Assembly: GCA_963729215.1 (NCBI GenBank)
Contig: CAVSND010000011.1
Location: 2,836 to 66,835 of the forward strand
DNA length: 64,000 bases
Origin: an uncultured Acidobacteriota bacterium
GTDB lineage: Bacteria > Acidobacteriota > Vicinamibacteria > Vicinamibacterales > CAVVIG01
Direction: 5' to 3'
The notes beneath the pieces are model-generated. The model was not told the DNA's origin, did no database searches, and saw nothing but the letters and a program-made list of their open reading frames with translations. Every line of letters begins with the position of its first letter. The stretch's first letter is position 1. The position numbers and the translations under genes are program-made. This document shows, in pieces, positions 2,777-44,800 of this stretch.

Positions 2777-3329
2777 TGAGACGCCCCTGACGATCTTCAC
2801 GATCGGGCACTCCACGCGCCCGATCGACGAATTCATCCGCCTCCTCAAGGCACACGGCGTGGAGCGCGTCGTCGACGTGCGGACGATTCCACGCTCACGA
2901 CACAATCCGCAATTCAATCGCGACCAGCTGTCTCCGGCTCTGCACCGACGGAAGATTCACTATCGACACATGCCTGGGCTGGGCGGCTTGCGCCGTGCGC
3001 GGCCCGACTCCGTGAACGCCGGGTGGCGCAATGCCAGCTTTCGTGGCTATGCCGATTACATGCAGACCCCGGAGTTCGAAGACAGCCTGGAGAGTTGCAT
3101 TGACCTGGCGAAACGGGAACGCGTCGTCCTGATGTGCGCGGAGGCGGTGCCGTGGCGTTGCCACCGATCGCTGATTGCGGACGCGTTGCTGGCGAGAGGT
3201 ATCAATGCGAGTGAGATTACCAGCCGCATTCGCACGCGGCTTCATTCACTGACGCCGTTCGCACGGGTCAAAGGAACGCACGTCACATATCCTGCAATCA
3301 GAGTGACGTCATCATCGGCGAGCGTGTAA
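2776..3329 (+). CDS. DUF488-family protein; probable start is ATG 2776 overlapping the cupin TGA (TGATG), with a 1-nt frame error in the C-run at 2784-2787
   Basis: The downstream frame gives 'LTIFTIGHSTRPIDEFIRLLKAHGVERVVDVRT...', the canonical DUF488 N-terminus. The only in-frame ATG (2676) would overlap the cupin gene by 100 nt. ATGAGACGCCCCTGA would read MRRP-LTIFTIGHS if one C were restored. Confidence 0.55.
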
Positions 3330-3602
3330 CCAACGTGACGGTGCGCGATATGTTGGAGAGAAGGCCAACACGATGGAGTCTCGTCTCGACTGCAAGCGCT
3401 CCTGGCGATGGAGAAATACATCGCCGCACGTGCCGGACCACATGTAGAAAGAGGCAAGACGCACTTCCCCAGGCAGGTGATCGTCGAAGTGACCTACCTG
3501 GCCGCGACCATCAATGCGTGGAATCGCCCCGCGATCGCGTGGCGGGCACTACCCGGCCATTACCGGGCGACAACGACGATTGCGTAGCCCGGTCGCGCGG
3601 CC

Positions 3603-4904
3603 TTAGAGCCGAGCCGAAGACGGCGTCAGGAACGCGTAGCGCAGGATCCGGATCACATTCACCGTGTCGACGAGGGACGCGGCAAACAAGGACCATGCGG
3701 CGGCGCTGACGAACGGAATGGCATCGAAGGCAAGGCCGCCCGCCAGCGCGGGCACGCCGAACAGCCACAGCACGAACGCGAGTTCCTGCCCTGTGCGCCA
3801 GGGCATCTCGTGCTGCGACGGGACGGGACCCTTGTATCCGGTGTTGGCGTACGCCCAATACCACGCAAAAATCGGCAGCAATCGCCCTTCCATGCCGACG
3901 ACCATCTGCGCCAGGAATCCGACGAGGCCGAAGACACCGTACGCCATCGCGACGCGCAGCGTGTTCGGCGATGGCTCGGCGACTGTGAGCCAGACGCCAA
4001 GCAGGGAGGCGACGGCGAGCCAGACGAACGATGCGCCCGCGTGCAGGACCGCGGGGTCTGGCGTGCGCACCTTGGGCGGACGCGGACGCGGACGGCGCAA
4101 CATCCACACGACCTGCGAGAAAAACGCGGCCAGCGCTCCGACGATGGTGAGCGCAAAGATCCACGCGAACGGACCGCGCCACAACAGTGTGACGAACAGG
4201 CCGGTCACGCCCGTTTGAAGAAGCACCGCGCTGAGCCACAGACGCGGTCCGCTGGGCATGGCTGCGGGCAGAATCATCGGCAGCAGTCGATACGCCACGC
4301 CGACCACCATCATCGTGGCCCAGCCGAGCGCGGCGAGGTGCGCGTGCGCGAAGACGTTGGCGAGCACGAACCCCGGCAGAAAGTGATAGACCTTGTCGAA
4401 TCCGATGAGCACGCCGAGGGTGGCGGCGGCGAGGATGTTGAGAAACGCGAGCATGATGTGCGCGCTGATGGCGCGCGGCAGCGACGCCTGACGCAGGCGC
4501 CGGGCGACGTGAACGCCGACCAGGATAATGCCCGTGCCGACCGTGATGGCCGACCACGCCATGCCGCCGTACTCCTGGAGCCAGAAGTGCGCCACCATGC
4601 CGACGATGCCGATGAGGACGAGGGCAAACGCGGTGTAGTCGAGCCACGTGGCCGGGATCCAGACGCGCAAGGCGACCGGTCCGACGACGTAGAGCGACCC
4701 GAGGATGGAGGCGGTAATCCAGCCGAGCGTCACCAGGTGCACAATCGCCAGCATCCGCGAGTGGTAGAAGAAACCGGACACGCCGCGCGGATCGAGCGCC
4801 ACCGCCAGGCACGCCAGCGCAAACGCGACGTGCGCGACCCCGAAGTAGAGGACCGGCAGCAGGCGCGGCGGCAGTTGGCTGCGGGGTGCCGGTGAGGCGG
4901 TCAC
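3603..4904 (-). CDS. polytopic (about 12 TM) membrane protein with multiple conserved His; possibly NnrS-like heme-copper membrane protein
   Basis: 433-aa ORF in a single frame, highly hydrophobic with repeated His-containing segments ('HLVTLGW', 'HAHLAALGW'). The family assignment is a guess from architecture and context. Confidence 0.5.
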   Translation of the reverse strand: MTASPAPRSQLPPRLLPVLYFGVAHVAFALACLAVALDPRGVSGFFYHSRMLAIVHLVTLGWITASILGSLYVVGPVALRVWIPATWLDYTAFALVLIGIVGMVAHFWLQEYGGMAWSAITVGTGIILVGVHVARRLRQASLPRAISAHIMLAFLNILAAATLGVLIGFDKVYHFLPGFVLANVFAHAHLAALGWATMMVVGVAYRLLPMILPAAMPSGPRLWLSAVLLQTGVTGLFVTLLWRGPFAWIFALTIVGALAAFFSQVVWMLRRPRPRPPKVRTPDPAVLHAGASFVWLAVASLLGVWLTVAEPSPNTLRVAMAYGVFGLVGFLAQMVVGMEGRLLPIFAWYWAYANTGYKGPVPSQHEMPWRTGQELAFVLWLFGVPALAGGLAFDAIPFVSAAAWSLFAASLVDTVNVIRILRYAFLTPSSARL

Positions 4905-4905
4905 G

Positions 4906-5584
4906 TCAGCGGGGAGCGTCTCTCAGCGCCCAGAGCGGGTAGTCGATGCCGGCGAGCCGATTGATGACGATCGCCTGCAGCGTCAGGATGGCCACGGCGA
5001 TCTCGATCACGAGCAGGTGGAACGGTCGTGTCACGATCCCGAGCGAGATGATGAGGGTCGTCGCGCCGGCGGGCGGGTGCGCCGCTTTCGCCAGAATCAT
5101 CAACGCGCCCGTCGACGCCAGCGACAGCGCCGCGGCGCCGACGCGCGCGAGCGACACGCCGGTGGCCATCGCCGGCGGCGCGTCCTGCAGGCCGAACAGC
5201 CACAGCGCACCGTATCCGCAGACGATGCCGATCGCGTGCCCGTAGATCGTGTGCCGAGGGCTGGCGGCCGGCGCGCGCGGGCGTGAAGAAGAACAGAAAC
5301 GCGGTCGGGCCCAGCGAGGGAAACACGAACGGCGTGCGGGACACCATCGCGACCGCCGCCAGGAGCGCGATCGTGATGAAGCCGTTCAGAAACATGAACA
5401 GGGCCCAGATGGGGCGCTCCGAATAACGCGTCAGCAGGTGGGTGATCTGGAGTCGTGCGGCAAGGCTCCGCGCCACCTCCGGGGCGTGGACGACGAGCGG
5501 CGGTCGGGGCGGGCGCTCAGCCACGCGGACCCCACTGGCGGAGGCGCGCGTCGAACGACACCACGTACCAGAGCAGTCCGCCAC
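4906..5584 (-). CDS. HPP-family integral membrane protein; 1-nt frameshift about 5262
   Basis: The N-terminal frame gives '...PSLGPTAFLFFFTPARAGRQP'. The C-terminal frame gives 'RHTIYGHAIGIVCGYGALWLFGL...HPPAGATTLIISLGIV' (HPP motif). Removing one T at about 5262 joins 'QP' to 'RHTIYGH'. The start codon is uncertain. Confidence 0.55.
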
Positions 5585-5756
5585 TCAACACGAACAGCAC
5601 GCCCGACGCGATGGCGGTCGGCACGAGGACGACGAACTGTCGCGCAAACAGCGCGTCGAGCGCCGCGGCGACGAGCCACAACTGGATCACCACGAGCAAG
5701 GCGATGAGGACCAGCACGGCGGAGAAGAGAATCGAGCCCTGCTGCCGGGTTTCCAC
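5517..5756 (-). CDS. small two-TM membrane protein, GTG start 2 nt after the Rieske stop
   Basis: 79-aa hydrophobic ORF ('ILFSAVLVLIALLVVIQLWLVAAALDALF...IASGVLFVLSGGLLWYVV') tightly coupled to the upstream gene. Confidence 0.3.
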   Translation of the reverse strand: METRQQGSILFSAVLVLIALLVVIQLWLVAAALDALFARQFVVLVPTAIASGVLFVLSGGLLWYVVSFDARLRQWGPRG

Positions 5757-5757
5757 A

Positions 5758-6246
5758 CTACACCTCGACGCCCGTCGCCACGAGATCGGCGCCGCGCTGC
5801 TCGATCACAATGCGCGGCAGGCGCCGCGTCGGCGGCCCCGCCAGCGGGAGCCCTTCGCGCGCGGAGAACGATCCCTTGTGGCAGGGGCAGGCCAGCACGT
5901 CGTCGCCGGGCCGGTGGACGACCGCGCACGACAGGTGGGTGCAGACCTGCGAGAACGCGTCGATACGTCCCGCCGCGTCACGCACCAGAATGCACGGGTC
6001 ATCGTCGGTCGGGTAGCGGAACAACAACGAGCCTCCTGGCGCAACCTCGTCGGCGGCAGCGATTCGCCTCGCAGGCGGGGCGGGCGCGCGGCCCGTCAGG
6101 CCGATGAACGCGATCAGGACGTTGACGCTCGCCAGCAGGCCCGAACCGAGCGTGAGAAACTTCGCCAGTTCCCGCCGCGTCATGTAGTTGTCTTCGTCCC
6201 ACCGGACGGGGAAGTCCTCGCGCCAGCGCGGACGTTCGTCAGCCAT
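5758..6246 (-). CDS. membrane-anchored Rieske [2Fe-2S] protein with Tat-like RR motif in its anchor
   Basis: 'CTHLSC...CPCHKGSF' Rieske boxes. The N-terminus '[28 protein letters not shown]' resembles an uncleaved twin-arginine signal anchor. Its ATG overlaps the upstream stop as TGATG. Confidence 0.8.
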
Positions 6247-6872
6247 CAATGGGCCTCCAGCAGTGCCGCGACATCGTACGGATCGGCCGGCGGCTGTGAT
6301 CGCCTGAGCGAGCTGAGGGGAATCACCGCCACGTTCACGCGGGTCACCTCGGTGGGCACCAGGACGAAGACCTTGGTGCGCACCTGCTGATCGCCGAACT
6401 GCCAGTCGTTGACCGCCCGTCCCTGTCGCGTCCGCATGATCTCTTCGATCGTCGTGAACGCCAGCGCGCCCGAGGGACACACGGTGGCGCACATCGGACG
6501 CCGGCCCGTGCTCGTGCGGTCGTAGCACATGTCGCACTTCATCATCTGATCGGCGTCGCCGTCGTACTTGGGCACGCCGAACGGGCACGCGAGCACGCAG
6601 TTCGAGCAGCCGATGCAGCGCGGCTTGAGCGAGCTCTGGACGACGCCCTCGGCGGTCTGCTTGATGGCGTCGGCGGGACAGACCTGCGCGCAGATCGGGT
6701 CTTCGCAGTGCATGCACACCTGCGGCGCCGTCTGCACACTGTCGCGCCGCTCGATCGTTTCGAGGTGGATGAGCGATCGCCCGCGGTGCGTGTCGCATTC
6801 CTCGCACGCCTGCACACAGGCCTGGCACCCGATGCAGCGCGAGTAGTCGATGAAGAACGCGAGCTCGCTCAC
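6246..6872 (-). CDS. 4x[4Fe-4S] ferredoxin-type electron-transfer subunit (DmsB/PsrB/FdhB-like)
   Basis: GTG start overlapping the Mo-subunit TGA (GTGA). Four Cys clusters: '[11 protein letters not shown]', '[14 protein letters not shown]', '[12 protein letters not shown]', 'CDMC...CATVCP'. Confidence 0.8.
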
Positions 6873-9093
6873 CGGATGCCTCCGGCCGCCGGCTCGAGCG
6901 CGGCGATGTCGCCGGACGGCTCCGGCGCCTTCGAGACGCGGACGGCGCAGATCTTGAACTCGGGAATCTTGGAGATCGGGATCGATTGCGCGGATCGTGC
7001 AGTTGTTCGCCGATCGGTCGAGCGGCCAGTGATACGGGACGAACACGGTGTCGGGCCGAATGGTTTTCACGACCTGCGCGCGGACGACGATGGCGCCGCG
7101 GCGGCTCTCGACGCGGACGAAATCGCCATCCACGATCCCGAGCGACCCGGCCAGGCGCGGATGGATCTCGCACTGCGGCTGCGGGTACTGGTCGACGAGC
7201 GCGCCGATGCGACGCGTCTGTGTGCCCGACAGATACTGCGACACCACGCGTCCCGTCGTCAGCACGATCGGGTAGTCGGCGTCCGGCTCTTCGGCGGCGG
7301 GCCGCCAGTCGGCCGGCTGAAAATGCGCCTTGCCGTCGGGATGGCCGAACTGCCAGCCTTCGTACAGGCGCGGCGTGCCGGGATGATCGAGCGACGGGCA
7401 CGGCCAGAACACGCCCATCTCGCGATCGATGCGCTCCCACGTGATACCGGCGTAGTCGGCGACGCCGCCTTTCGAGGCGATGCGCAGCTCTTCGAAGATG
7501 TCGCGCGTCGACTCGTACGCGAACTTGTCGCCCGCGCCGAGCCGTTTCGCGAGGTCGCAGATGATCCGCCAGTCCTGCCGCGCGCCCGTCCGGCGGCTGG
7601 ACGACCTGGCGATGATGGATCACGCGCCCCTCGACGTTGGTCGTCGTCCCTTCGTCTTCTTCCATCAGCGAGCCGGGGAGCACGAGGTCGGCGTAGCGCG
7701 CCGTCTCCGACATGAAGAAGTCGATGACCGTGAAGAACTCGAGGCGGCTCAGGGCTTCGCGGATGAAGTCGCCGTCGGGCAGCGACACGGCCGGGTTGAA
7801 GCAGAGCAGCAGCAGGCCCTTGATGCGGCCGTCGTGGATCGCTTCGAGCAGCGGCACGGCCGACAATCCGGTATGCGGGATGGTGGATTCCTCGACGCCC
7901 CACACGCCGGCGATGTATTCCCGGTGCGCCGGGTTCTCGAGGTCGCGCGCACCCGGCAGCTGATCGCATTTCTGTCCCTGTTCGCGCGCGCCCTGGCCGT
8001 TGCCCTGGCCGGTGATCATCGCGTAGCCGCAGCCTTCGCGCCCGATGCGGCCCGTGGCCACCACCAGGTTGATGGCGGCCATGCAGTTCTCGACGCCCTT
8101 CGAGTGGTGCTCGATGCCGCGGGCGTGCAGCAGGAAGCTGGTCTCGGCCGGCCCCCACATTTCGGCCGCGCGCACGATCATCGAGGCGGGCACGCTGGCG
8201 ACCGTCGCCGCGTAGTCCGGGGTGTAGCGCTCGACGATGGCCTCGACGGCGTCCCAGCCGGTGGTATGCGCCGCGATGAACTCGCGGTTGATCCAGCCGC
8301 GCTGCACCATGACGTGGAGCATGCCGTAGAAGACGCCGATGTCGCCGCCCGAGCGCACGGGGATGAAGAGGTCGGCGGTGCGGGCAATCGGCGTCATGCG
8401 CGGATCGAGCACGATGAGCTTCGCGCCGTTCTCCCGCGCCTGCCAGAGATAGTCGGTGGTGATCGGGGCGCACTCGGCGATGTTCGCGCCCGCGACGAGA
8501 ATCACCTTCGCCTTCGGGATGTCGCTCCAGGGGTTGGCGCTGCGATCGATGCCGAGAATCTTCTTCGACGCGGCCGCCGCCGACACCATGCAGAGCCGGC
8601 CGTTGTAGTCGATGTTCGCGGTGCGCACGGCCACCCGCGCGAACTTGCCCATCAGGTACGCCTTCTCGTTGGTCAGCGAGGCGCCGGTCAGCACGGCGAA
8701 GGCGTCCCGTCCGTAGGCGGACTGGATGCGCTGGATCTCGCGCGCGGTACGGTCGAGCGCGGTGTCCCAGTCGATCGGTTGGAAGCCGCGCGCCTCGTCG
8801 CGAACGAGCGGCGTCAGCAGCCGATCCGGATGCTCGTCCTGCATGTAGCGCTTCACGCCCTTGGGGCAGAGCTTTCCCTTGTTGAAGGGGAATTCCTCCC
8901 AGGGCTCGAAGCCGACGATCTTCTCGTCCTTCACCTTGAGCTGGATGCCGCACTGCTGGCCGCAGAAGCAGCAGTGGGTCGGCACGATCCGGTCGGGCTC
9001 GCCGCGCGTGGTCCAGCCGCCGGCCGGTTCCCGGTGGAGATGCGGGCCGAATTGCGCCACGAGATCCGGGATCGACGCCGGCAGTCTGGCCAT
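6869..9093 (-). CDS. molybdopterin (bis-PGD) oxidoreductase catalytic subunit of the Nas/Nap/NarB type; no signal peptide; two 1-nt frameshifts (about 7557 and about 6940)
   Basis: N-terminal 4Fe-4S motif '[12 protein letters not shown]'. Mo-ligand region '[18 protein letters not shown]' matches the Nap/Nas 'RxCMxS' signature. After frame correction the sequence continues '...VVQPPDGR | [31 protein letters not shown]...' and ends '...AIDP | [35 protein letters not shown]'. The ORF-track 1111-aa product is a cross-frame artefact. Confidence 0.75.
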
Positions 9094-10119
9094 TACGCGC
9101 CGCGCCTCCAGAGCGCGTCTTGCGTCAACGCGAGGTTCTTGCGGCGGCAGGCCGGACAGATGTCCTGATAGTGCGCGGTCGTCTCTGTCCGGTGCGCTCG
9201 ACTGTCACCGGCCGCCTCGTATCTGATTCCCAGCTCGCGCTCGACCTGCTTGAGATCGTCGATGTGCATCCGCGACGCGAACGGTTCGCCGCATCGCGCG
9301 CAGCGGGCCGCCTCGCCCTTCGCGCCGGTTTCGCGATAGAAGGCGACGCCGAGCTGCGCGGGCCGCTGGAAGATGTGGAAGAACTTGCCGAACGGCAGGT
9401 ACAGCAGGGTGAAGATCACCGTGACCGCGTGCAGCTGCGACAGGAACACGAAATGCAGCCCGCGCATCAGGTGGGTCGAGACGGTCAGGAAGACGCCGGT
9501 GATCGACACCGCGAAGAGCATCACCAGCGGCAGCAGATCAGCCCCGAACTGCTGGACCGCAAGGGCGCCGCGGTCGCTGGCGCGCCGCCACATCGCCAGG
9601 GACACGCCGATGGCCGACCATCACGAGCACGGCCGAGATGTCCAGCACGTTGAACACGAGCGGCGCAAGCGGACTCGCCAGATCGAACGTAAACACGCGC
9701 AGGCCAAAGACGAACGCCTGGTAGCGCTCCTGCGCGGCCCCCGCCGTCTCGAAATGAATCCACCCGAAGGACAGGGGGAACGTCACCGCCGCGGCGAGAA
9801 TGCAGCCCCAGAAGATGAACCAGTGTGCCGCCCACCGCAACGGCGATCGTTTCTCGATGAACCGCTGCGCGACGATGTTCACGGCGAAGAGTGCGGCGAG
9901 GCGGGAGAGGTTCTGCGCCACGCGCGAGGGCGCGAAGAACAACCGCCAGCCGCGTCGCCAGAAGAGACGCGTGGGCGGTTTCGTCAGCCACATCGAGTAG
10001 CGGTACCCGAGACCGAAGGCCGAAAACACACTGGCGCCGGCGTACGGGACAAGGGCCGCGTCGAAATCCCTGAGCCGCCGGCTGCCGAAGTAGATGCCGG
10101 CGAGGACCAGTGACGCCAT
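9093..10119 (-). CDS. NarI/HdrE/DsrM-like di-heme cytochrome b membrane subunit with C-terminal Cys4 zinc-ribbon-like tail; frameshift about 9540-9605
   Basis: '[12 protein letters not shown]...' has about 4 TM segments, then '[28 protein letters not shown]' (NarI-like His-containing helix), then 'CARCGEPF...CPACRRK'. The stop TAA overlaps the Mo-subunit ATG as TAATG. Confidence 0.55.
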
Positions 10120-10187
10120 GAACAGGCCCCATCCGGTGGCGCGAGCGACGTCAGCGCGGGGAGAAGCCGTCACGGACGGAGTATAGG

Positions 10188-11627
10188 CTACTCGGGCGAG
10201 TCCGGGCTGAGATGCACGTGGCCCATCAGGCCGCCGTCCGCGTGGTCCAGGATATGGCAGTGGAACATCCACATGCCCGGCCGCTCGTCGAAGACGACGA
10301 CGAAGCGGATCGTGCCTTCCATCGGCACGTCGAGCGTGTCCTTCCACGCCATCGGACGGATCGGTTGAAGCTGTTCGTCCAGCGGCAGGAAAAAGAAGCC
10401 GTGGAGATGGATCGGATGCGCCCACTTCGTCTCGTTCTTCACGGTCCAGATCTGCGTCTCGCCGACCCTGGCGAGAAATGGCCGGGCCTTCCAGAACGGC
10501 GCGCCATTCACCTGGAACTCGGACTTCCCGTTCGCGCCCGCGGGCGGCAGCGTCAGGACCATGTCCACGTGCGTCGCTCCCGCGAGGCTCGGCGGCACGA
10601 TGTCCCGATGCAATGCGGGCATCTGCGGTTTCGGCAGCGCAGGCTCGTCGCTGAACGCAATCGTCAGGACGTCCTCGGGAATGCGATTTTCGACGCTGCC
10701 GTACCCCCGGTTGTACAACGCCGCTTGCAACGTGAGCGTCCCGCCTCGTGGTCCGGTCGGCGCCACAATCACGTCCATCCGTTCGCCCGGCGTGATGAGC
10801 AGCGTATCCTTCGTCTCCGGGCGTTCCTGCAGGCCGCCGTCGCCGCCGATGACGGTGAATGTCTGCCCGTCGAGATCGAGGAAAAAGAAACGGCTCCTGG
10901 CCGCGTTGACGATCCGCCAGCGCTGCGGCGCGCCGGAGCGTGCGCGGATGGTCGGCAGGATCCTGCCGTTCGCCAGGACGTAGAGGCCTTCGCGGCCGAA
11001 CACCGTGCCCACCGGCCCGCCGGTGTCCGGCGAGTCGAGAACGCCGTGGCTGTCAAAGCCGATGTCGCTCAGGACGAGCGTCAGCTGGTCGGCGACACCC
11101 ACGCCGTCGTCCGGATCGTCGACCAGCAGCGCGCCGTAGAGGCCGAACCCCACCTGCGCCGCGGACATGACGTGCGGGTGATACCAGTAGAGCCCCGCAT
11201 CGCGCACCGTGAAGTCGTACGTGAACGTCTCGCCGCGTTTGACCTCCGGCTGCGACACCTCGGGCACGCCGTCCATTTCGATCGGCACCCGCACGCCGTG
11301 CCAATGGACGGTGGTCGGCTGAGGAAGATCGTTGGTGAAGTGCACGATGACGCGGTCGCCGACGTGTGCGCGGATGAGCGGCCCGGGGATGCCGCCGTTG
11401 TACGTCCAGGCCTGGACCGTGTGCTTGTTGCCCACGTCGACGTCGGCCACGCGGGCGGTCAGGTCGATTTCGACGATTTTCGGGTCGGGGTTGCGGTCGC
11501 GGGCTTCGGCCAGCTTGATCCCCTGATCCCAGTTGGCAGGCGCGAGCGACTGCGAATCCGCCGCCGCGCCTGCGCGCGCGACCAGCAGAAGGGCGACACA
11601 GGCCGAGGCGCGCCACCGCGTGCTCAT
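10188..11627 (-). CDS. three-domain multicopper oxidase (laccase/CueO-like), Sec signal peptide
   Basis: 'HWHGVRVP', 'WYHPH', 'HPIHLHGFFF' and 'HCHILDHADGGLMGHV' copper-binding motifs. Signal peptide 'MSTRWRASACVALLLVARAGAAA'. Confidence 0.85.
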   Translation of the reverse strand: MSTRWRASACVALLLVARAGAAADSQSLAPANWDQGIKLAEARDRNPDPKIVEIDLTARVADVDVGNKHTVQAWTYNGGIPGPLIRAHVGDRVIVHFTNDLPQPTTVHWHGVRVPIEMDGVPEVSQPEVKRGETFTYDFTVRDAGLYWYHPHVMSAAQVGFGLYGALLVDDPDDGVGVADQLTLVLSDIGFDSHGVLDSPDTGGPVGTVFGREGLYVLANGRILPTIRARSGAPQRWRIVNAARSRFFFLDLDGQTFTVIGGDGGLQERPETKDTLLITPGERMDVIVAPTGPRGGTLTLQAALYNRGYGSVENRIPEDVLTIAFSDEPALPKPQMPALHRDIVPPSLAGATHVDMVLTLPPAGANGKSEFQVNGAPFWKARPFLARVGETQIWTVKNETKWAHPIHLHGFFFLPLDEQLQPIRPMAWKDTLDVPMEGTIRFVVVFDERPGMWMFHCHILDHADGGLMGHVHLSPDSPE

Positions 11628-11633
11628 GTAAAT

Positions 11634-11650
11634 ATGTATTCAGGATACAT
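11634..11650. promoter_or_regulatory. AT-rich perfect inverted repeat ATGTAT-tcagg-ATACAT in the divergent promoter region between the multicopper-oxidase operon and the Rrf2 gene; candidate Rrf2/NsrR operator
   Basis: 6-5-6 palindrome in an otherwise GC-rich genome, 36 nt upstream of the Rrf2 start and 7 nt upstream of the multicopper-oxidase ATG. It resembles the ATRTAT-N5-ATAYAT Bacillus-type NsrR half-site arrangement. Confidence 0.45.
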
Positions 11651-11685
11651 GTTTAAGGTAGAATTTGCCAACGGCAGGAGACACC

Positions 11686-12135
11686 GTGACCCTCACAAAA
11701 TTCTCGGACTATTCCCTCCGCCTGCTGATCTACCTGGGGTTGCATGAAGGCCGGCTCGTGCCGGTCGGCGAGATCAGCCGCGCCTACCGGGTCTCGCCGC
11801 ACATCATGGTCAAAGTCGTGCAGCGGCTGACCGAGCAGGAACTGGTGGCCAGCGTCCGCGGGCGGAACGGCGGCCTGCGCCTGAACAAGCCGCCCGCCGA
11901 GATCAATGTGGGCCGCCTGATTCGGCGTACCGAGCCCGGCTGGGATCTGGTCGAGTGCTTCGACGCGGCGACGAATACGTGCCCGATCGACGGCGCCTGC
12001 GGGCTCAAGGGGGTCCTGAAGCGCGCGCAGCGCGCGTTCTTCGACGTCCTCGACGATCACACCCTTGCCGATTTTCTTCCCCGTGCGCCGGCGCTGATCC
12101 GGCTGCTGAACCAGTCCCTCGAAGCCAATCCATAG
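11686..12135 (+). CDS. Rrf2-family transcriptional regulator (NsrR/IscR-like)
   Basis: '(V)TLTKFSDYSLRLLIYLG...ISRAYRVSPHIMVKVVQRL' Rrf2 HTH, with three Cys ('CFDAATNTCPIDGAC') for the FeS cluster. GTG at 11686 with AGGAG upstream. The ORF track used TTG 11665. Confidence 0.8.
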   Translation: MTLTKFSDYSLRLLIYLGLHEGRLVPVGEISRAYRVSPHIMVKVVQRLTEQELVASVRGRNGGLRLNKPPAEINVGRLIRRTEPGWDLVECFDAATNTCPIDGACGLKGVLKRAQRAFFDVLDDHTLADFLPRAPALIRLLNQSLEANP

Positions 12136-12187
12136 CGCGCGACCGCCTATACAATAGGCGTCCTCGCGCGTTCGATGAGGTGACGAG

Positions 12188-13345
12188 ATGAACAGAAAGC
12201 GACTCGCACCGGTGGCCGTCGCGTTGCTGCTCGCCGGTGGAGCAGCAGCGACGATGACCGCGCAGCCAGCGAATCCCGAACCCCTGTCGATCGCGAGACA
12301 GGGATACCTGTTCGCCGGCGGGAAGTATTCGACCGTCGGCGGCCGGCAGGTGATGAGCGGCCAGCTCTACGCCGAGTTCCAGATCCCGGCCCGGCAGACG
12401 CATCCGTGGCCGATCGTCATGATTCACGGCGGCGCGCAATCGGGAACGAACTTCACCGGCACGCCGGATGGCCGCGAGGGCTGGGCGCAGTTCTTCCTGC
12501 GGCGGGGGTACGCGGTGTACGTCGTCGATCAGCCGGGTCGAGGACGCGCGGCGTACCAGGCGGACGTCTATGGGCCGGCCACTCCTCTCGTGCTCGAGAC
12601 CACCCAGAGACAATTCGCGGCGCCGGAGCGCTACAAACCCTGGCCGCAGGCGCATCTGCACACGCAGTGGCCCGGGCCGGCCGTTCCCGGCGACATGGTC
12701 TTCGACCAGTTTTACGCCTCGCAGATGCCGTCGATCCAGGATTTCACGCTGCAGCAGCAACTCAACCGCGAGGCCATCGTCGCGCTGCTCGAAAAAATCG
12801 GTCCGTCGATACTCCTGACGCACTCGCAATCAGGAGCGTTCGGCTGGCCCGTGGCGGACTCGCGGCCCAGCCTGGTCAAGGCCATCCTCGCGGTCGAGCC
12901 GAACGGCCCGCCGTTTTTCAACGTCGAAAATGTGCCCGCGCCCGAATGGTTTCGCATGGCAGCCGTGCAGGCGCGGCCCTGGGGCGTCACGGCCGTTCCG
13001 CTTGCGTACTCGCCGTCTGCGGCGCAGGCGTCGGAGCTGGCGATCGTCCAGCAGGACAAGCCCGATGGTCCCGATCTCGTCCGCTGCTGGCTTCAAAAGG
13101 CGCCGGCCCGGCAGCTTCCGAATCTCAAGACCGTGCCGATCCTCATCCTGACGGCCGAAGCGTCGTATCACGCGCCGTACGACCACTGCACCGCCAGGTA
13201 TCTCGAACAGGCCGGCCTCCGTCCCGAATGGATCAAGCTCGCCGACGCCGGCATCCGCGGCAACGGCCACATGATGATGCTCGAGAAAAACAACGCGGAC
13301 ATCGCGGCCGTGATGTCCACGTGGCTCGACAAGGCCCTGCGCTAG
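12188..13345 (+). CDS. secreted alpha/beta-fold hydrolase
   Basis: Signal peptide, then 'PIVMIHGGAQSG', 'LLTHSQSGAFGW' (GXSXG-like nucleophile elbow) and 'GNGHMMMLE'. Confidence 0.7.
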   Translation: MNRKRLAPVAVALLLAGGAAATMTAQPANPEPLSIARQGYLFAGGKYSTVGGRQVMSGQLYAEFQIPARQTHPWPIVMIHGGAQSGTNFTGTPDGREGWAQFFLRRGYAVYVVDQPGRGRAAYQADVYGPATPLVLETTQRQFAAPERYKPWPQAHLHTQWPGPAVPGDMVFDQFYASQMPSIQDFTLQQQLNREAIVALLEKIGPSILLTHSQSGAFGWPVADSRPSLVKAILAVEPNGPPFFNVENVPAPEWFRMAAVQARPWGVTAVPLAYSPSAAQASELAIVQQDKPDGPDLVRCWLQKAPARQLPNLKTVPILILTAEASYHAPYDHCTARYLEQAGLRPEWIKLADAGIRGNGHMMMLEKNNADIAAVMSTWLDKALR

Positions 13346-13353
13346 ACGGCACG

Positions 13354-14314
13354 ATGTCCGATCGACGCACGATTCTGATCACGGGCGCCGCGGGGAACCT
13401 GGGCAGCCGGCTTGCGCGCCATCTCGTGCCGGCCGGCCACGAGCTCCGCTTGATGTACCACCGCAGGCCGCTGCCGGAGGATTTACTCGAAGCAGCGAAT
13501 GTTCATCCGATCAGGGCGGATCTGGCTGTTCCCGCGACGCTGCCGCCCGCGGTCGCCGGCGCCGACGTCATCGTCCACTTTGCCGGCCGGCTCTTCGCCC
13601 CTCGCGCGGCGAGCTTTCTCCCCGAAACCAACATCCGCTGGTTTTCGAATCTGCTGGCGGCTGGTCTTGCGGCGAAGGTGGGCAGAATCATTCTGACGTC
13701 GTTTCCGCACGTCGAGGGCCCGACGTCAGTGGAGCAGCCGGCGACGGGACGGCTCGATCGCGATCCGATTTCCGTCCACGCCCGCACGCGCCTTGAAGAA
13801 GAGCGGATGCTGATCGAGCGTACTGAGGGAACGGCGACGGTCCCGGTGATCCTCCGGCTGGGCGTGATCTACGGTCGCGGCATCCTGATGGTCGAAGCCG
13901 CGCGGTGGCTCGCACGGCGGCGGCTTCTCTGTATCTGGCCGGAACCGACGCTCTGCCAGTTTCTTGTCGACCGAGGATTATCTCCGCGCGGCCGAAGCGG
14001 CGATCGTGAATCCAGGGGTTCGCGGGATCTATCACGTCGGGGACGACCAGCCTGTCACGGTCCAGCAGTTTCTTGACGATGCCTGCCGCGTGTGGGGCTA
14101 TCCGCGGCCCATCCGGGTCCCATACCCGGCGATTTACGCGGCGGCGTCCCTGTGCGAAGGTTTCGCAATGGTCGCGGGGACGCCGTCGCCGCTCACACGT
14201 GATTTCGTCCGACTCGGGCGTGTTCCCCATTGGGGTGACACGAGCCGTGCCCGCAGGGAACTGATTCCCCTGCTTTCCTATCCCACGCTCGAAACAGGGT
14301 TGTCGACGCTCTGA
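13354..14314 (+). CDS. NAD-dependent epimerase/dehydratase (SDR family); 1-nt frameshift about 13968
   Basis: 'ILITGAAGNLGSRLARHL' Rossmann motif. The C-terminus continues in another frame: '(QFL)..EDYLRAAEAAIVNPGVRGIYHVGDDQPVTVQQFLD'. Confidence 0.65.
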
Positions 14315-14993: not shown

Positions 14994-17001
<2,008 letters not shown>

Positions 17002-41181: not shown

Positions 41182-41517
41182 TTAACCGAGAATCTCGTTC
41201 AGCCCGTCCAGGACGCGCGCCAGTTCTTCCTCGGAAGCACGCGCCACCCTGGCGCCGACCCGATCGACAGAGAGCGTCCGGATTTGACTAATCTTGATCC
41301 ATGAGCGCTTCCTCAGACCAAGGGCTCGACTCTCCAGCGTCAGAGGAAATCCAGCGCGGGGTTCCTGGCTCGTCAGCGCGACGGCGATCACCGTGCCTGA
41401 GCGTTCGTTGAACACATCATGGCTGAGGACCAGTACGGGACGCCGACCGGATTGCTCGTGGCCGCGAACCGGTTTCAACTCTGCCCAGCGAACCTCGCCT
41501 CTCAGTATTCTGGCCAT
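41182..41517 (-). CDS. MazF/PemK-family type II toxin (mRNA interferase)
   Basis: 'RGEVRWAELKPVRGHEQSGRRPVLVLSHDVFNERSGTVIAVALTS' PemK fold. Overlaps the upstream antitoxin by 16 nt. Confidence 0.8.
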   Translation of the reverse strand: MARILRGEVRWAELKPVRGHEQSGRRPVLVLSHDVFNERSGTVIAVALTSQEPRAGFPLTLESRALGLRKRSWIKISQIRTLSVDRVGARVARASEEELARVLDGLNEILG

Positions 41518-41744
41518 GACGCGAAGTCGTCAGCCAGACCTTCATCGGCGAGCCGTTTTTCCTCGCGCGGATTCAGGTTGGCGGATTCGCGGGCAAGCCG
41601 GGTCCGGGCGAGCCGTTGAAGCTTGTCAGCGAGCGCGGCTTCGATGGCCTGGCTTCGATTCCTGAACCGTTGACGGTCCACGAGTTCATCGAGGCGTTGC
41701 AGAAGGGCGCTGTCCAATGTCAGAGCGACTTTTGTCTTGGGCAT
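41502..41744 (-). CDS. ribbon-helix-helix (CopG/MazE-like) antitoxin
   Basis: 'KTKVALTLDSALLQRLDELVDRQRFRNRSQAIEAAL' RHH motif. Confidence 0.7.
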   Translation of the reverse strand: MPKTKVALTLDSALLQRLDELVDRQRFRNRSQAIEAALADKLQRLARTRLARESANLNPREEKRLADEGLADDFASWPEY

Positions 41745-41858
41745 CGTCGGTATGATGAATCATCATACCAAGGGCGTGCACTGCCCCGGCAGGCTCACTC
41801 GGCGTTATGTTGCCCCTGGGTGTCGCATCGCATCCGGCAACGAGAGTGACAGGCTGGC

Positions 41859-44800
41859 TTACTTGGTCGCCTCGGCCGGCTCCAGCGCCGCCGCCTGCTG
41901 ACGGCTCTTCAGCCACGCCTGCACCTGCGCCATGTAGGTGTAGAACACCGGCGTCAGATACAGCGTCACGAGCTGTGAAAACAGCAGCCCGCCGACCACG
42001 ACCAGGCCGAGCGGCTGCCTGGCCTCGCCGCCCGCGCCGTACCCGAGCGCGATCGGCACGGCGCCGAGCAGCGCCGCCATCGTCGTCATCATGATCGGCC
42101 GGAAGCGGATCAGGCAGCCCTGGTAGATGGCCTGCTCGGGCGTGCTGCCCTGGCGCTCGGCGTCGAGCGCGAAGTCGATCTGCATGATCGCGTTCTTCTC
42201 GACGATGCCGATCAGCATGATCATGCCGACGAAGGCGTAGATGTTGAGATCCATCCCGAACAGGACGAGCGTCAGCAGCGCGCCGAAGCCGGCCGAGGGC
42301 AGGCCGGAGAGAATCGTCAGCGGGTGGATGTAGCTCTCGTAGAGGATGCCCAGCACGATGTAGACGACCATGATGGCGATCACGAGGAGCACGGCGAGGT
42401 TCGACAGCGAGTTCTGGAACGCCTTGGCCGCGCCCTGGAACTGGCCGCTGACGCCTTCGGGGAGCGTGGCCGTGGCCACGGTGCGCACGCGGCTCAGCAC
42501 GTCGCCGAGCGACGCGCCGGGCGCGAGACCGAACGAGATGGTGACCGCCGGCAGCTGGCCGTAGTGGTTCACGGTCTGCGGGCCGATGACCTGCGTGGCG
42601 CGGGCCAGCGTGTCGAGCGGCACGACGATGCCGGCCGATCCGCTCGGGCCGTTGGCGCCCGTGCCGCCGTTGCCGGCAGCAGCGGCCGCATTGATGGCCG
42701 CCGCCGTCCCGGGGGCCGGCGTGGCCTTGAAGTAGAGGAGCGAGAGCGCCGCCGGGTCGGACTGGTACTGCTCGGCGAGCTCGAGCAGGACCTTGTACTC
42801 GTTGACCGGCGCGTAGATCGTGGACACCCAGCGCGGACCGTACGCGTCGTAGAACGCGTTCTCGATGGCGTTCGCCGTGATGCCGAGCGCCGCCGCCTTG
42901 TCGCGATCGATCTCGACGTTCACCTGCGGGCTCGTGACCTGGAGGTCGCTCGTCAGATCGGCGAGGCCTTCCACGTCCGCCAGCGCCTTCATCAGCGTGC
43001 GCGACGCCGCGTAGAGCGCCTCGCGGTCCGGCGACTGCATCGAGGACCTGATACAGGCTCTTGCTCACCTGGCCGCCGATGCGGATGGTCGGCGGGTTCT
43101 GCACGAACGTGTGCATGCCGACGACCGTCGCCAGCTGCGGCCGCAGCTTCTCGATGATCTGGTTGGCCAGCTCCTTCCGCTCGCTGCGCGGCTTGAGGTG
43201 GACGACGATCTGGCCGAGGTTGGGACCGCCAAGCGTGTTCGATGCGCTGCCGCCAATCGTCGAGACGAGCGCCTCGACGTTCGGATCGTTGCGGATGATG
43301 TTCGCCACCTCGCCCTGGTATTCGACGAGCTTGTCGTAGGACGTGCCCTGCGCGGCCTCCGTCGTCACCGCCAGCTGGTCCGTGTCCTGATCGGGAATGA
43401 ACCCCTTCGGGACGTAGACGAACAGCGCGCCCGTGAGGACCAGGAGGACGATGGACGCCGCCATCGTGGCGCCGCGATGCCTCAGCACGATCTGAAGTGT
43501 CCGGTCGTAGCTGGCCAGCAGGCTCGCGAACGCGCGTTCGGTCGCCACCGCGAACCGCGAACCGCCCTCGTGCCCGGGTGCCGCGTGTCCGCCTTTTTCA
43601 TCCGCGTTGTGCGCATGCTTGGGCTTCTTGAGGAAGCGGCTGCAGAGCATGGGCGTGAGCGTCACCGAGACGACGCCAGAAATCAGGATGGCGACGCAGA
43701 TCGTGACCGAGAACTCACGGAACAGCCGGCCGAGCACGCCGCCCATGAAGAGGACGGGGATGAACACGGCCGCCAGCGACAGCGTCATCGACACGATCGT
43801 GAACCCGATTTCGCGCGACCCGACGAGCGACGCGGTGAGCGGGTCTTCACCCATTTCGACGTGCCGGTAGATGTTCTCGAGCATCACGATCGCGTCGTCC
43901 ACGACGAAGCCGACCGAGAGAATGAGCGCCATCATCGACAGGTTGTCGAGGCTGTACCCGAGCATGTACATGACCGCGAACGTGCCGATGATCGAGAAGG
44001 GCAGCGCGAGGCTGGGAATGACGGTCGCCCACACGTTCCGCAGGAACACGAAGATGACCATGATCACGAGCGCGAGCGTGAGCGCCATGGTGATCTGCAC
44101 GTCCGATGACGATTCGCGGATCGTGTCCGACCGATCGTAGAGGACGTCCATGTGCACGCTGGTCGGCAGCTCCATCTGGAACTGGGGCAGCAGGGCCTTG
44201 ACGGCGTCGGCCACGGCGATGGTGTTGGTCCCGGGCTGCCGCTGGATGCCGAGCGTGATGCCGCGCCGTTCGTCGTCCCGCGTGTAGTACCACGACGCCG
44301 TCCGCTGATCCTCGACGCCGTCGATGACGGCGCCGAGCTCGCGCAGCCGCACCGGCGCGCCATTGCGGTACGAGACGATCATGTCCTTGTACTGCTCGGC
44401 GTTCATCAGCTGGCCGGTCGCCTGCAGCGTGAAGGACTTGTGCGGCCCGACCAGCGTGCCGCTGGGCACGTTGCTGTTCCAGTTCCGCAGCTGCGTCTCG
44501 ACTTCGTTGATGCCGATCTGGCGTGACGCCAGCGCGTGCGGGTCGAGCTGCACGTGCACGGCGTATTTCTGGCTGCCGAGCACCTGGACCTGCGCCACGC
44601 CGTTGACCATCGAGATGCGCTGCGCGATGCGCGTCTGCGCGTACTCGTCGAGCGTCCACGGCGGCAGCGTCGTCGAGGTGATGACGAGGTAGAGGACGGG
44701 CTGATCCGCCGGGTTGACCTTGGTGAAGGTCGGCGGCGTCGGCATGCCCTGCGGCAGCAGGCGCGAGGCCTGCGTGATCGCCGACTGCACGTCGATGGAG

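Follow-up and report, generated by a model that had tools for sequence, protein, structure and literature searches.

A conserved NsrR-type palindrome as the predicted operator of an Rrf2 regulator gene and a divergent multicopper oxidase gene string in an uncultured acidobacterium

NsrR proteins of Escherichia coli, Bacillus subtilis and Streptomyces coelicolor are winged-helix regulators of the Rrf2 family, marked by three cysteines and Asp8, and act at a palindromic, AT-rich ATGyAT-N5-ATrCAT box overlapping the promoter. NsrR sites consist of two 11-bp inverted repeats bound by the [4Fe-4S] form of the protein, and binding is abolished by nitric oxide (NO) (PMC4432287). The consensus gATGyAT-(N5)-ATrCATc has been reported by Rodionov et al., who list hmp, nnrS, norB, nirK, dnrN and hcp as members of the regulon (PMC1274295). 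In streptomycetes a site is conserved upstream of nsrR itself, which denotes autoregulation (PMC4432287), and published work places the nirK cluster of Nitrosomonas europaea under NsrR control. We describe here a stretch of 64,000 nucleotides (hereafter the window; contig CAVSND010000011.1, positions 2,836 to 66,835) from an uncultured bacterium of the Acidobacteriota (Vicinamibacterales), in which a palindrome found at 11629-11655 separates an Rrf2 gene from a divergent string of genes opened by a multicopper oxidase. The palindrome is likely, with a probability which we put at about 0.8, the operator of the adjacent NsrR-type repressor, and would divergently control the oxidase string and nsrR.

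The resemblance to the known systems is close. The regulator is an Rrf2 protein with the same three cysteines and Asp8, the box is of the same type and is predicted to overlap the promoter, its location upstream of nsrR predicts autoregulation as in streptomycetes, and in relatives and metagenomes the same box is found at hmp, norB, hemerythrin/RIC and YeaR-like genes. Differences concern the host, the regulator, which is 36-42% identical to characterised proteins, the commonest target, which is a three-domain multicopper oxidase, joined in the window by a NasC-like molybdoenzyme cluster, and the first gene, whose start codon adjoins the operator. As in the ncgABC-nirK region of N. europaea, the regulator gene lies beside an operon opening with a multicopper oxidase; unlike there, the oxidase is of the three-domain CueO/Thermus type, ~30% identical to the NcgA type, and is not followed by nirK or cytochrome c genes. 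The N. europaea layout is reproduced at one of the loci fetched for comparison (L013; fetched loci are denoted by L numbers). The literature searched held nothing specific on NsrR in Acidobacteria, or on NsrR together with a multicopper oxidase, beyond the N. europaea nirK cluster. The operator belongs to a familiar kind of switch and is an unremarkable case of it, textbook in its mechanism and unusual only in the genes apparently controlled. What is new is its placement in Acidobacteriota, and any further novelty resides in the regulon specific to this lineage and not in the operator itself.

The palindrome and its conservation

An earlier note on this DNA had pointed to a perfect 6-5-6 inverted repeat, located 36 nt before the GTG codon of the Rrf2 gene and immediately 5' of the divergent operon. 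All of this holds. The repeat reads ATGTAT-TCAGG-ATACAT, and is the sole zero-mismatch copy of ATGTAT-N5-ATACAT in the window; the GTG codon, 36 nt past the core, is at 11686, and the ATG of the oxidase, at 11627, lies 6 nt from the core. The palindrome is actually longer, with an 11-5-11 structure in which the arms TAAATATGTAT (11629-11639) and ATACATGTTTA (11645-11655) are complementary at 10 of 11 positions, leaving 1 nt to the oxidase start. In the published 11-1-11 frame the operator would span 11631-11653, with its centre at 11642. The surrounding region reads ...CTCATGTAAATATGTATTCAGGATACATGTTTAAGGTAGAATTTGCCAACGGCAGGAGACACCGTGACC... The two start codons, on opposite strands, delimit an intergenic region of 58 bp (11628-11685) with 39.7% GC. 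The AT-rich island of the earlier note is thus real, set in a window of 66% GC and not in a genome of about 70% GC as had been supposed. The core, within its 11-bp inverted repeat, is an exact instance of the gATGyAT-(N5)-ATrCATc consensus. The proposal of an NsrR site is upheld, and its attribution to the Bacillus type in particular is not, the motif being the general NsrR box.

By comparison with seventeen loci derived from genomes, the window is assigned to Acidobacteriota (Vicinamibacterales). Conservation was assessed at orthologous loci (L001-L009 and L018-L028), which derive from Acidobacteriota, a Bryobacteraceae metagenome-assembled genome included, except for one from Gemmatimonadaceae, and encode Rrf2 proteins 46-91% identical. 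The box AAAnATGTAT-N5-ATACATnTTT is present upstream of every orthologous Rrf2 gene fetched, followed 8 nt later by a likely -10 box. Most core positions are invariant across 12 aligned orthologous loci, and the flanks diverge. A weight matrix was built from the acidobacterial sites and scanned over ~400 kb of loci. Exactly one high-scoring site per locus was detected, adjoining the Rrf2 gene. The site lies just upstream of this gene in all loci except L013, where it is ~200 bp downstream, ahead of the ncgA operon. The glyA-hmp region of E. coli K-12 served as positive control: the single best match of the matrix was AAGATGCATTTGAGATACATCAA, a box of the NsrR-consensus type found just upstream of hmp, and the core of the window has the same architecture as this hmp promoter site. 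No RNA family was matched in an Rfam scan of the interval 11000-12500.

The regulator and the divergent promoters

The Rrf2 domain of the regulator is recognized by Pfam (PF02082, 115.7 bits, residues 3-131). Among proteins of known structure, S. coelicolor NsrR (ScNsrR; 5N07, E 3.7e-17) comes closest, all other Rrf2 structures, including IscR, CymR and RsrR, matching at E 1e-6 or worse, and identity to E. coli NsrR is 42% over the full length. The three cysteines noticed earlier, C91, C99 and C105, are indeed present, align with those of ScNsrR, in which the cluster ligands are Cys93, Cys99 and Cys105, and are invariant in 12 sequences. Asp8, which is reportedly the fourth cluster ligand in the ScNsrR structure 5N07, is invariant in the alignment as well, ScNsrR included. 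A grouping with IscR or CymR, which according to the earlier note would have spoken against NsrR, is contradicted by the PDB matches and by model scores: IscR models give 44 and 33 bits versus cut-offs of 208 and 275, the CymR model 41.5 bits versus 195. Boxes of the IscR, CymR or Fur/FNR type were also considered for the palindrome, and ruled out by hidden Markov model (HMM) scores and sequence. Hundreds of close homologs of the regulator occur in soil metagenomes, where they are named NsrR by the Joint Genome Institute (JGI). An exact-sequence look-up of the protein gave no match, and a tblastn search against plasmids returned generic 'Rrf2 family' names only.

The TAGAAT hexamer 8 nt past the core is the likely -10 box of the nsrR promoter, and is found in orthologs at fixed spacing as TAGAAT, TAGGAT or TATGAT; if so, the operator would cover the -35 region. 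The oxidase would be transcribed from a leftward promoter, the only sigma-70-like site detected across 3300-12300, in which TTGGCA (11671-11666) and TATCCT (11647-11642) are separated by an 18-nt spacer. The -10 element falls inside the palindrome, and is conserved there in relatives as TATNCT or TATTAT. The -35 element is TTGGCA, TTGCCA or TTGCAA in six of the eight loci where the oxidase is the divergent partner, deviating in L019 (TTGCTG) and L024 (CTGGCA). Terminator-like sites across the same 3300-12300 interval are at chance level.

These features are consistent with the following scheme. The repressor would be a homodimer, with a [4Fe-4S] cluster held by Cys91, Cys99, Cys105 and Asp8. 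On the minus strand TATCCT, as the -10 box, and probably also the transcription start would lie within the operator, with TTGGCA as the -35 box, and this promoter would drive the oxidase gene and, as genes are packed or overlapping, probably also those for the NarI-like protein, the NasC-like enzyme, the ferredoxin, the Rieske protein, the DUF6755 protein, the HPP protein and the protein resembling haem-copper oxidases (HCO). On the plus strand the operator would cover the -35 region preceding TAGAAT. Bound holo-NsrR would block RNA polymerase at both promoters; NO would nitrosylate the cluster, the protein would leave the DNA, and both transcription units would be derepressed.

The spacing between the palindrome and the first divergent gene is a feature in its own right. 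In all eight oxidase-partner loci the ATG of the oxidase is found 0-3 nt past the palindrome, or overlaps its last base, and in nine loci overall (the window, L001-L003, L018, L019, L024, L028 and L004) the first divergent gene, which is that of the oxidase except in L004, where it encodes the membrane protein, starts 0-7 nt past it. No Shine-Dalgarno sequence was seen before this gene in the nine loci; nsrR itself has a good AGGAG. Since the oxidase ATG adjoins the operator, the oxidase mRNA would be leaderless or nearly so, and the arrangement implies that the first divergent gene is translated with little or no leader.

Gene contexts of the box

Different genes face the box in relatives. 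The three-domain oxidase is the partner in L001, L002, L003, L018, L019, L024 and L028 (eight genome-derived loci in all, the window included), and the membrane-protein/molybdoenzyme cluster comes directly after the box in L004 and L006. In L020 it faces an ortholog of the 433-aa membrane protein which closes the string of the window, followed by qNorB, and in L021 a hemerythrin gene. L013, from Acidobacteriaceae bacterium KBS 96 (KB906767.1), carries a slightly degenerate box, TAAACATGCATTCTAGGTGCATGTTTC, and the gene order (7995-11823) is nsrR, NsrR box, two-domain oxidase, dihaem cytochrome c, cytochrome c, NirK-like gene. The two-domain, ncgA-type oxidase matches the N. europaea structure 3G5W (E 4e-162), and the whole looks like horizontal transfer of a complete regulated ncgABC-nirK-like unit. 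No hmp gene was seen in the fetched acidobacterial loci. In some loci (L020:10460-11965, L021:10447-11952, L026:967-2580, L090:838-1131) nsrR is directly followed, on its own strand, by a gene of ~500 aa for a B12-binding radical-SAM protein; judging by gene order, this gene probably shares the nsrR transcript and the control of the same box.

When metagenomes were scanned for exact copies of the extended motif, 20 bases long, 120 stretches were retrieved. An NsrR-like Rrf2 gene is held by 37 of them, and by 25 of the 43 with at least 50% GC. Rrf2 genes were most often found immediately downstream of the motif (32 cases), followed by genes for flavohaemoglobin (hmp, 12), truncated globins (8), the three-domain oxidase, which adjoins the box in 7 stretches, qNorB (3), NifU (2), and hemerythrin, a YeaR-like DUF1971 protein and an NcgA-like oxidase (1 each). 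Six flavohaemoglobins are confirmed by Pfam, the others being assigned by tblastn similarity to those six. The oxidase and NifU apart, the genes agree with the NsrR regulon of Rodionov et al. Additional boxes upstream of NO-detoxification genes, the lack of which would have counted against NsrR in the earlier note, have thus been found, before qNorB, hemerythrin and ncgA-cytochrome c-cytochrome c-nirK in relatives and before hmp, globin, qNorB and DUF1971 genes in metagenomes. The two NifU cases (L075:7902-8898 and L094:241-1237) have an exact box before a gene for a NifU-type Fe-S scaffold with NifU_N, BFD and NifU domains; their contigs have 56-58% GC, and no Rrf2 gene lies within the examined stretch.

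The coordinates of control elements and genes in the window are given in Table 1. The oxidase carries all four copper motifs, and the nearest PDB relatives are the Thermus multicopper oxidase, CueO and a Campylobacter oxidase. In the NsrR-linked oxidase the usual axial methionine of the T1 copper site, 10 residues past the T1 cysteine, is replaced by leucine, in the motif HCHILDHADGGLMG near the C-terminus. The motif was located in 12 fetched orthologs, each of which has leucine at this position, and a paralog-like oxidase in L057 keeps GMM. Leucine at the axial position is typical of high-potential laccases.

The molybdoenzyme cluster (5520-10194, minus strand; intact copy L018:3163-8441) has a subunit set unusual for a Nas-type molybdoenzyme, and no description of it was found in the literature searched. 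The catalytic subunit has no Tat signal, and the intact L018 ortholog scores 818 bits with the NCBIfam NasC model, versus a cut-off of 1100. The HPP family, to which a further membrane protein of the string belongs, is one which we take to include nitrite transporters. The 433-aa protein matches no Pfam family, and its homologs, 75-96% identical, are all labelled hypothetical; orthologs are found in L020 (8560-9855), L001 and L004. An AlphaFold model (pLDDT 74.6) matches CcoN of the cbb3 oxidase (TM 0.70) and NorB of cNOR, matches overall having TM values of ~0.65-0.70 at 12-14% identity. On the strength of this model, the protein may be an undescribed member of the superfamily of HCO and nitric oxide reductases (NOR). 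An identification as NnrS was ruled out, as no Pfam NnrS match was obtained even at E up to 5.

Table 1. Predicted control elements and genes of the nsrR-oxidase locus in the window
Feature	Position	Strand	Remarks
Extended 27-bp palindrome TAAATATGTATTCAGGATACATGTTTA, proposed NsrR operator	11629..11655		sequence and conservation at orthologous loci
Core ATGTAT-N5-ATACAT	11634..11650		read from sequence; equals NsrR consensus gATGyAT-N5-ATrCATc
TATCCT, likely -10 box of leftward promoter	11642..11647	-	within operator; sigma-70-like match
TAGAAT, likely -10 box of rightward (nsrR) promoter	11659..11664	+	8 nt past core; conserved at fixed distance
TTGGCA, likely -35 box of leftward promoter	11666..11671	-	sigma-70-like match
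AGGAG, ribosome-binding site of regulator gene	11676..11680	+	read from sequence
NsrR-type Rrf2 regulator gene, 149 aa	11686..12135	+	GTG start; Asp8, Cys91, Cys99, Cys105; Pfam, PDB match, alignment
Three-domain multicopper oxidase, 479 aa, opening the leftward string	10188..11627	-	Pfam Cu-oxidase_3, Cu-oxidase, Cu-oxidase_2
Membrane protein, 364 aa in relatives, weak NarI-like match	9096..10194	-	frameshifted by private 7-nt insertion at 9612
NasC-like molybdopterin catalytic subunit, 740 aa when intact	6875..9093	-	frameshifted near 7587 and 6976-6980
Four-cluster ferredoxin subunit (HybA/DmsB-like), ~208 aa	6246..6872	-	
Rieske [2Fe-2S] protein	5758..6246	-	N-terminal TRRELAKFL segment
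DUF6755 small membrane protein	5520..5756	-	
HPP-family membrane protein	4906..5395	-	frameshifted near 5281
Conserved 433-aa, 12-helix protein, last of string	3603..4904	-	HCO/NOR-like predicted fold

It is tempting to imagine that the NsrR regulon of Vicinamibacterales is built around an undescribed NO/nitrite module instead of a flavohaemoglobin. The module would include a three-domain multicopper oxidase of the periplasm, whose Leu-substituted T1 copper site would be of high potential and whose substrate would be NO or nitrite; a NasC-type nitrate reductase, anchored to the membrane via the NarI-like subunit and served by the four-cluster ferredoxin and the Tat-type Rieske protein, with HPP as nitrite carrier; and the conserved 12-helix protein of the HCO/NOR superfamily, which is partnered by qNorB in relatives and might represent either a new enzyme of the NO-reductase type or an accessory subunit. 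That all three parts are correct together is doubtful, and the module is offered as a tentative scheme.

Whatever the function of these genes, the NsrR box-and-regulator pair extends, essentially unchanged, to the abundant and poorly studied Acidobacteriota of soil, and AAAnATGTAT-N5-ATACATnTTT represents a simple sequence handle to find their NO-responsive genes. The pairing of NsrR with the oxidase, the NasC-like cluster and the HCO-like protein nominates uncharacterised enzymes for the turnover of NO, nitrite and N2O in soil.

Alternative readings and minor observations

Several data weigh against the operator described here. Palindromes of this kind are not significant in the window by number alone: perfect 6-5-6 repeats are 35, versus 35.4 +/- 6.3 in dinucleotide shuffles, and 11-5-11 repeats with at most one mismatch are 4, versus 1.8. 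Only one box was found in the 64 kb, by zero-mismatch search as well as by weight-matrix scan. The promoter hexamers are consensus matches only, and the 127-bp gap before the HPP gene, the largest in the otherwise packed string which follows the oxidase, leaves room for an internal promoter. Frameshifts affect several genes of the leftward string in the window. Finally, the NCBIfam NsrR equivalog NF008240 scores the regulator 121 bits versus a cut-off of 182, slightly less than the model of RirA, the iron-responsive Rrf2 protein of rhizobia (129 bits versus 193).

The abundance of perfect 6-5-6 repeats, as common as in shuffled sequences, is what one would expect if the palindrome had arisen by chance in AT-rich promoter DNA and were bound by no protein. 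Because palindromy is at chance level, significance rests on the specific sequence, the position and the conservation of the element, and it is conservation that effectively refutes this view: a specific sequence of 20-27 bp has been maintained at loci with diverged Rrf2 proteins, and across phyla, and co-occurs with NsrR-type genes and NO-detoxification genes. The model scores lead to a different objection, namely that the Rrf2 protein senses something other than NO, as a RirA-like or other regulator responding to Fe-S status, iron, redox or copper through an NsrR-like box, the oxidase serving copper or iron homeostasis. RirA belongs to a closely related subfamily and also has three cysteines, its model marginally exceeds that of NsrR, the oxidase resembles CueO and the Thermus enzyme, and in L024 genes for a CueR-type MerR regulator and a Cu-ATPase are 4-7 kb away. 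For this protein, NsrR and RirA are not told apart by the NCBIfam equivalogs, both scores being below cut-off. The experimentally proven ScNsrR scores only 91.6 bits with the NsrR model, also below threshold, which indicates that the model is too narrow to decide, and that failure is to be expected outside Proteobacteria. The iron-responsive operator (IRO) of RirA is TGA-N9-TCA. No such motif occurs within 11628-11685, where the operator is an NsrR box; Asp8 is kept in the regulator, ScNsrR leads its structural relatives by a wide margin, and in relatives and metagenomes the box precedes qNorB, hemerythrin, nirK and hmp, thus contexts of NO and nitrite and not of iron uptake. A RirA-like role is accordingly very improbable.

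How far NsrR control would extend along the string is a different matter. According to a more restricted view, only nsrR and the oxidase are controlled, and the molybdoenzyme cluster, HPP and the HCO-like gene have promoters of their own, and are not NO-regulated in this organism. The oxidase alone adjoins the box in L002, L003, L019 and L024, which implies that the modules are separable; a 65-bp gap parts the oxidase from the next gene in L018, and in the window the 127-bp gap before HPP can be viewed in the same light. Yet the oxidase stop overlaps the start of the next gene in the window, no other promoter-like site was detected across 3300-12300, and the box stands directly before the molybdoenzyme cluster in L004 and L006 and before the HCO-like gene in L020, so that each module has been placed under the box independently somewhere. 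Taken together, gene overlap and packing, terminators at chance level and the contexts of L004, L006 and L020 support control by the NsrR operator of the whole string, from 11627 to 3603, and the restricted version is unlikely.

The frameshifts were defined by reference to the intact L018 and to L069, 95% identical to the window. Private 1-nt insertions are found at ~5281 (HPP), at ~6976-6980 and 7587 (molybdenum subunit) and at 13967 (an epimerase gene), besides the 7-nt insertion in the NarI-like protein. Unrelated genes, an AcrB-like gene near 43,000 and a hybrid kinase gene near 16,300, also look split, which speaks for indels from assembly or sequencing more than for selective decay of the operon. 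The frameshifts are probably of this origin, and pseudogenes are a possible alternative.

A second perfect AT-rich palindrome, GGTATGATGA-a-TCATCATACC, is found in the window at 41749-41769. It precedes by 5 nt a small gene of the minus strand (41502-41744, 80 aa), the product of which was judged by eye, from the sequence alone, to resemble ribbon-helix-helix proteins of the CopG/antitoxin type, and is probably the operator of this protein.

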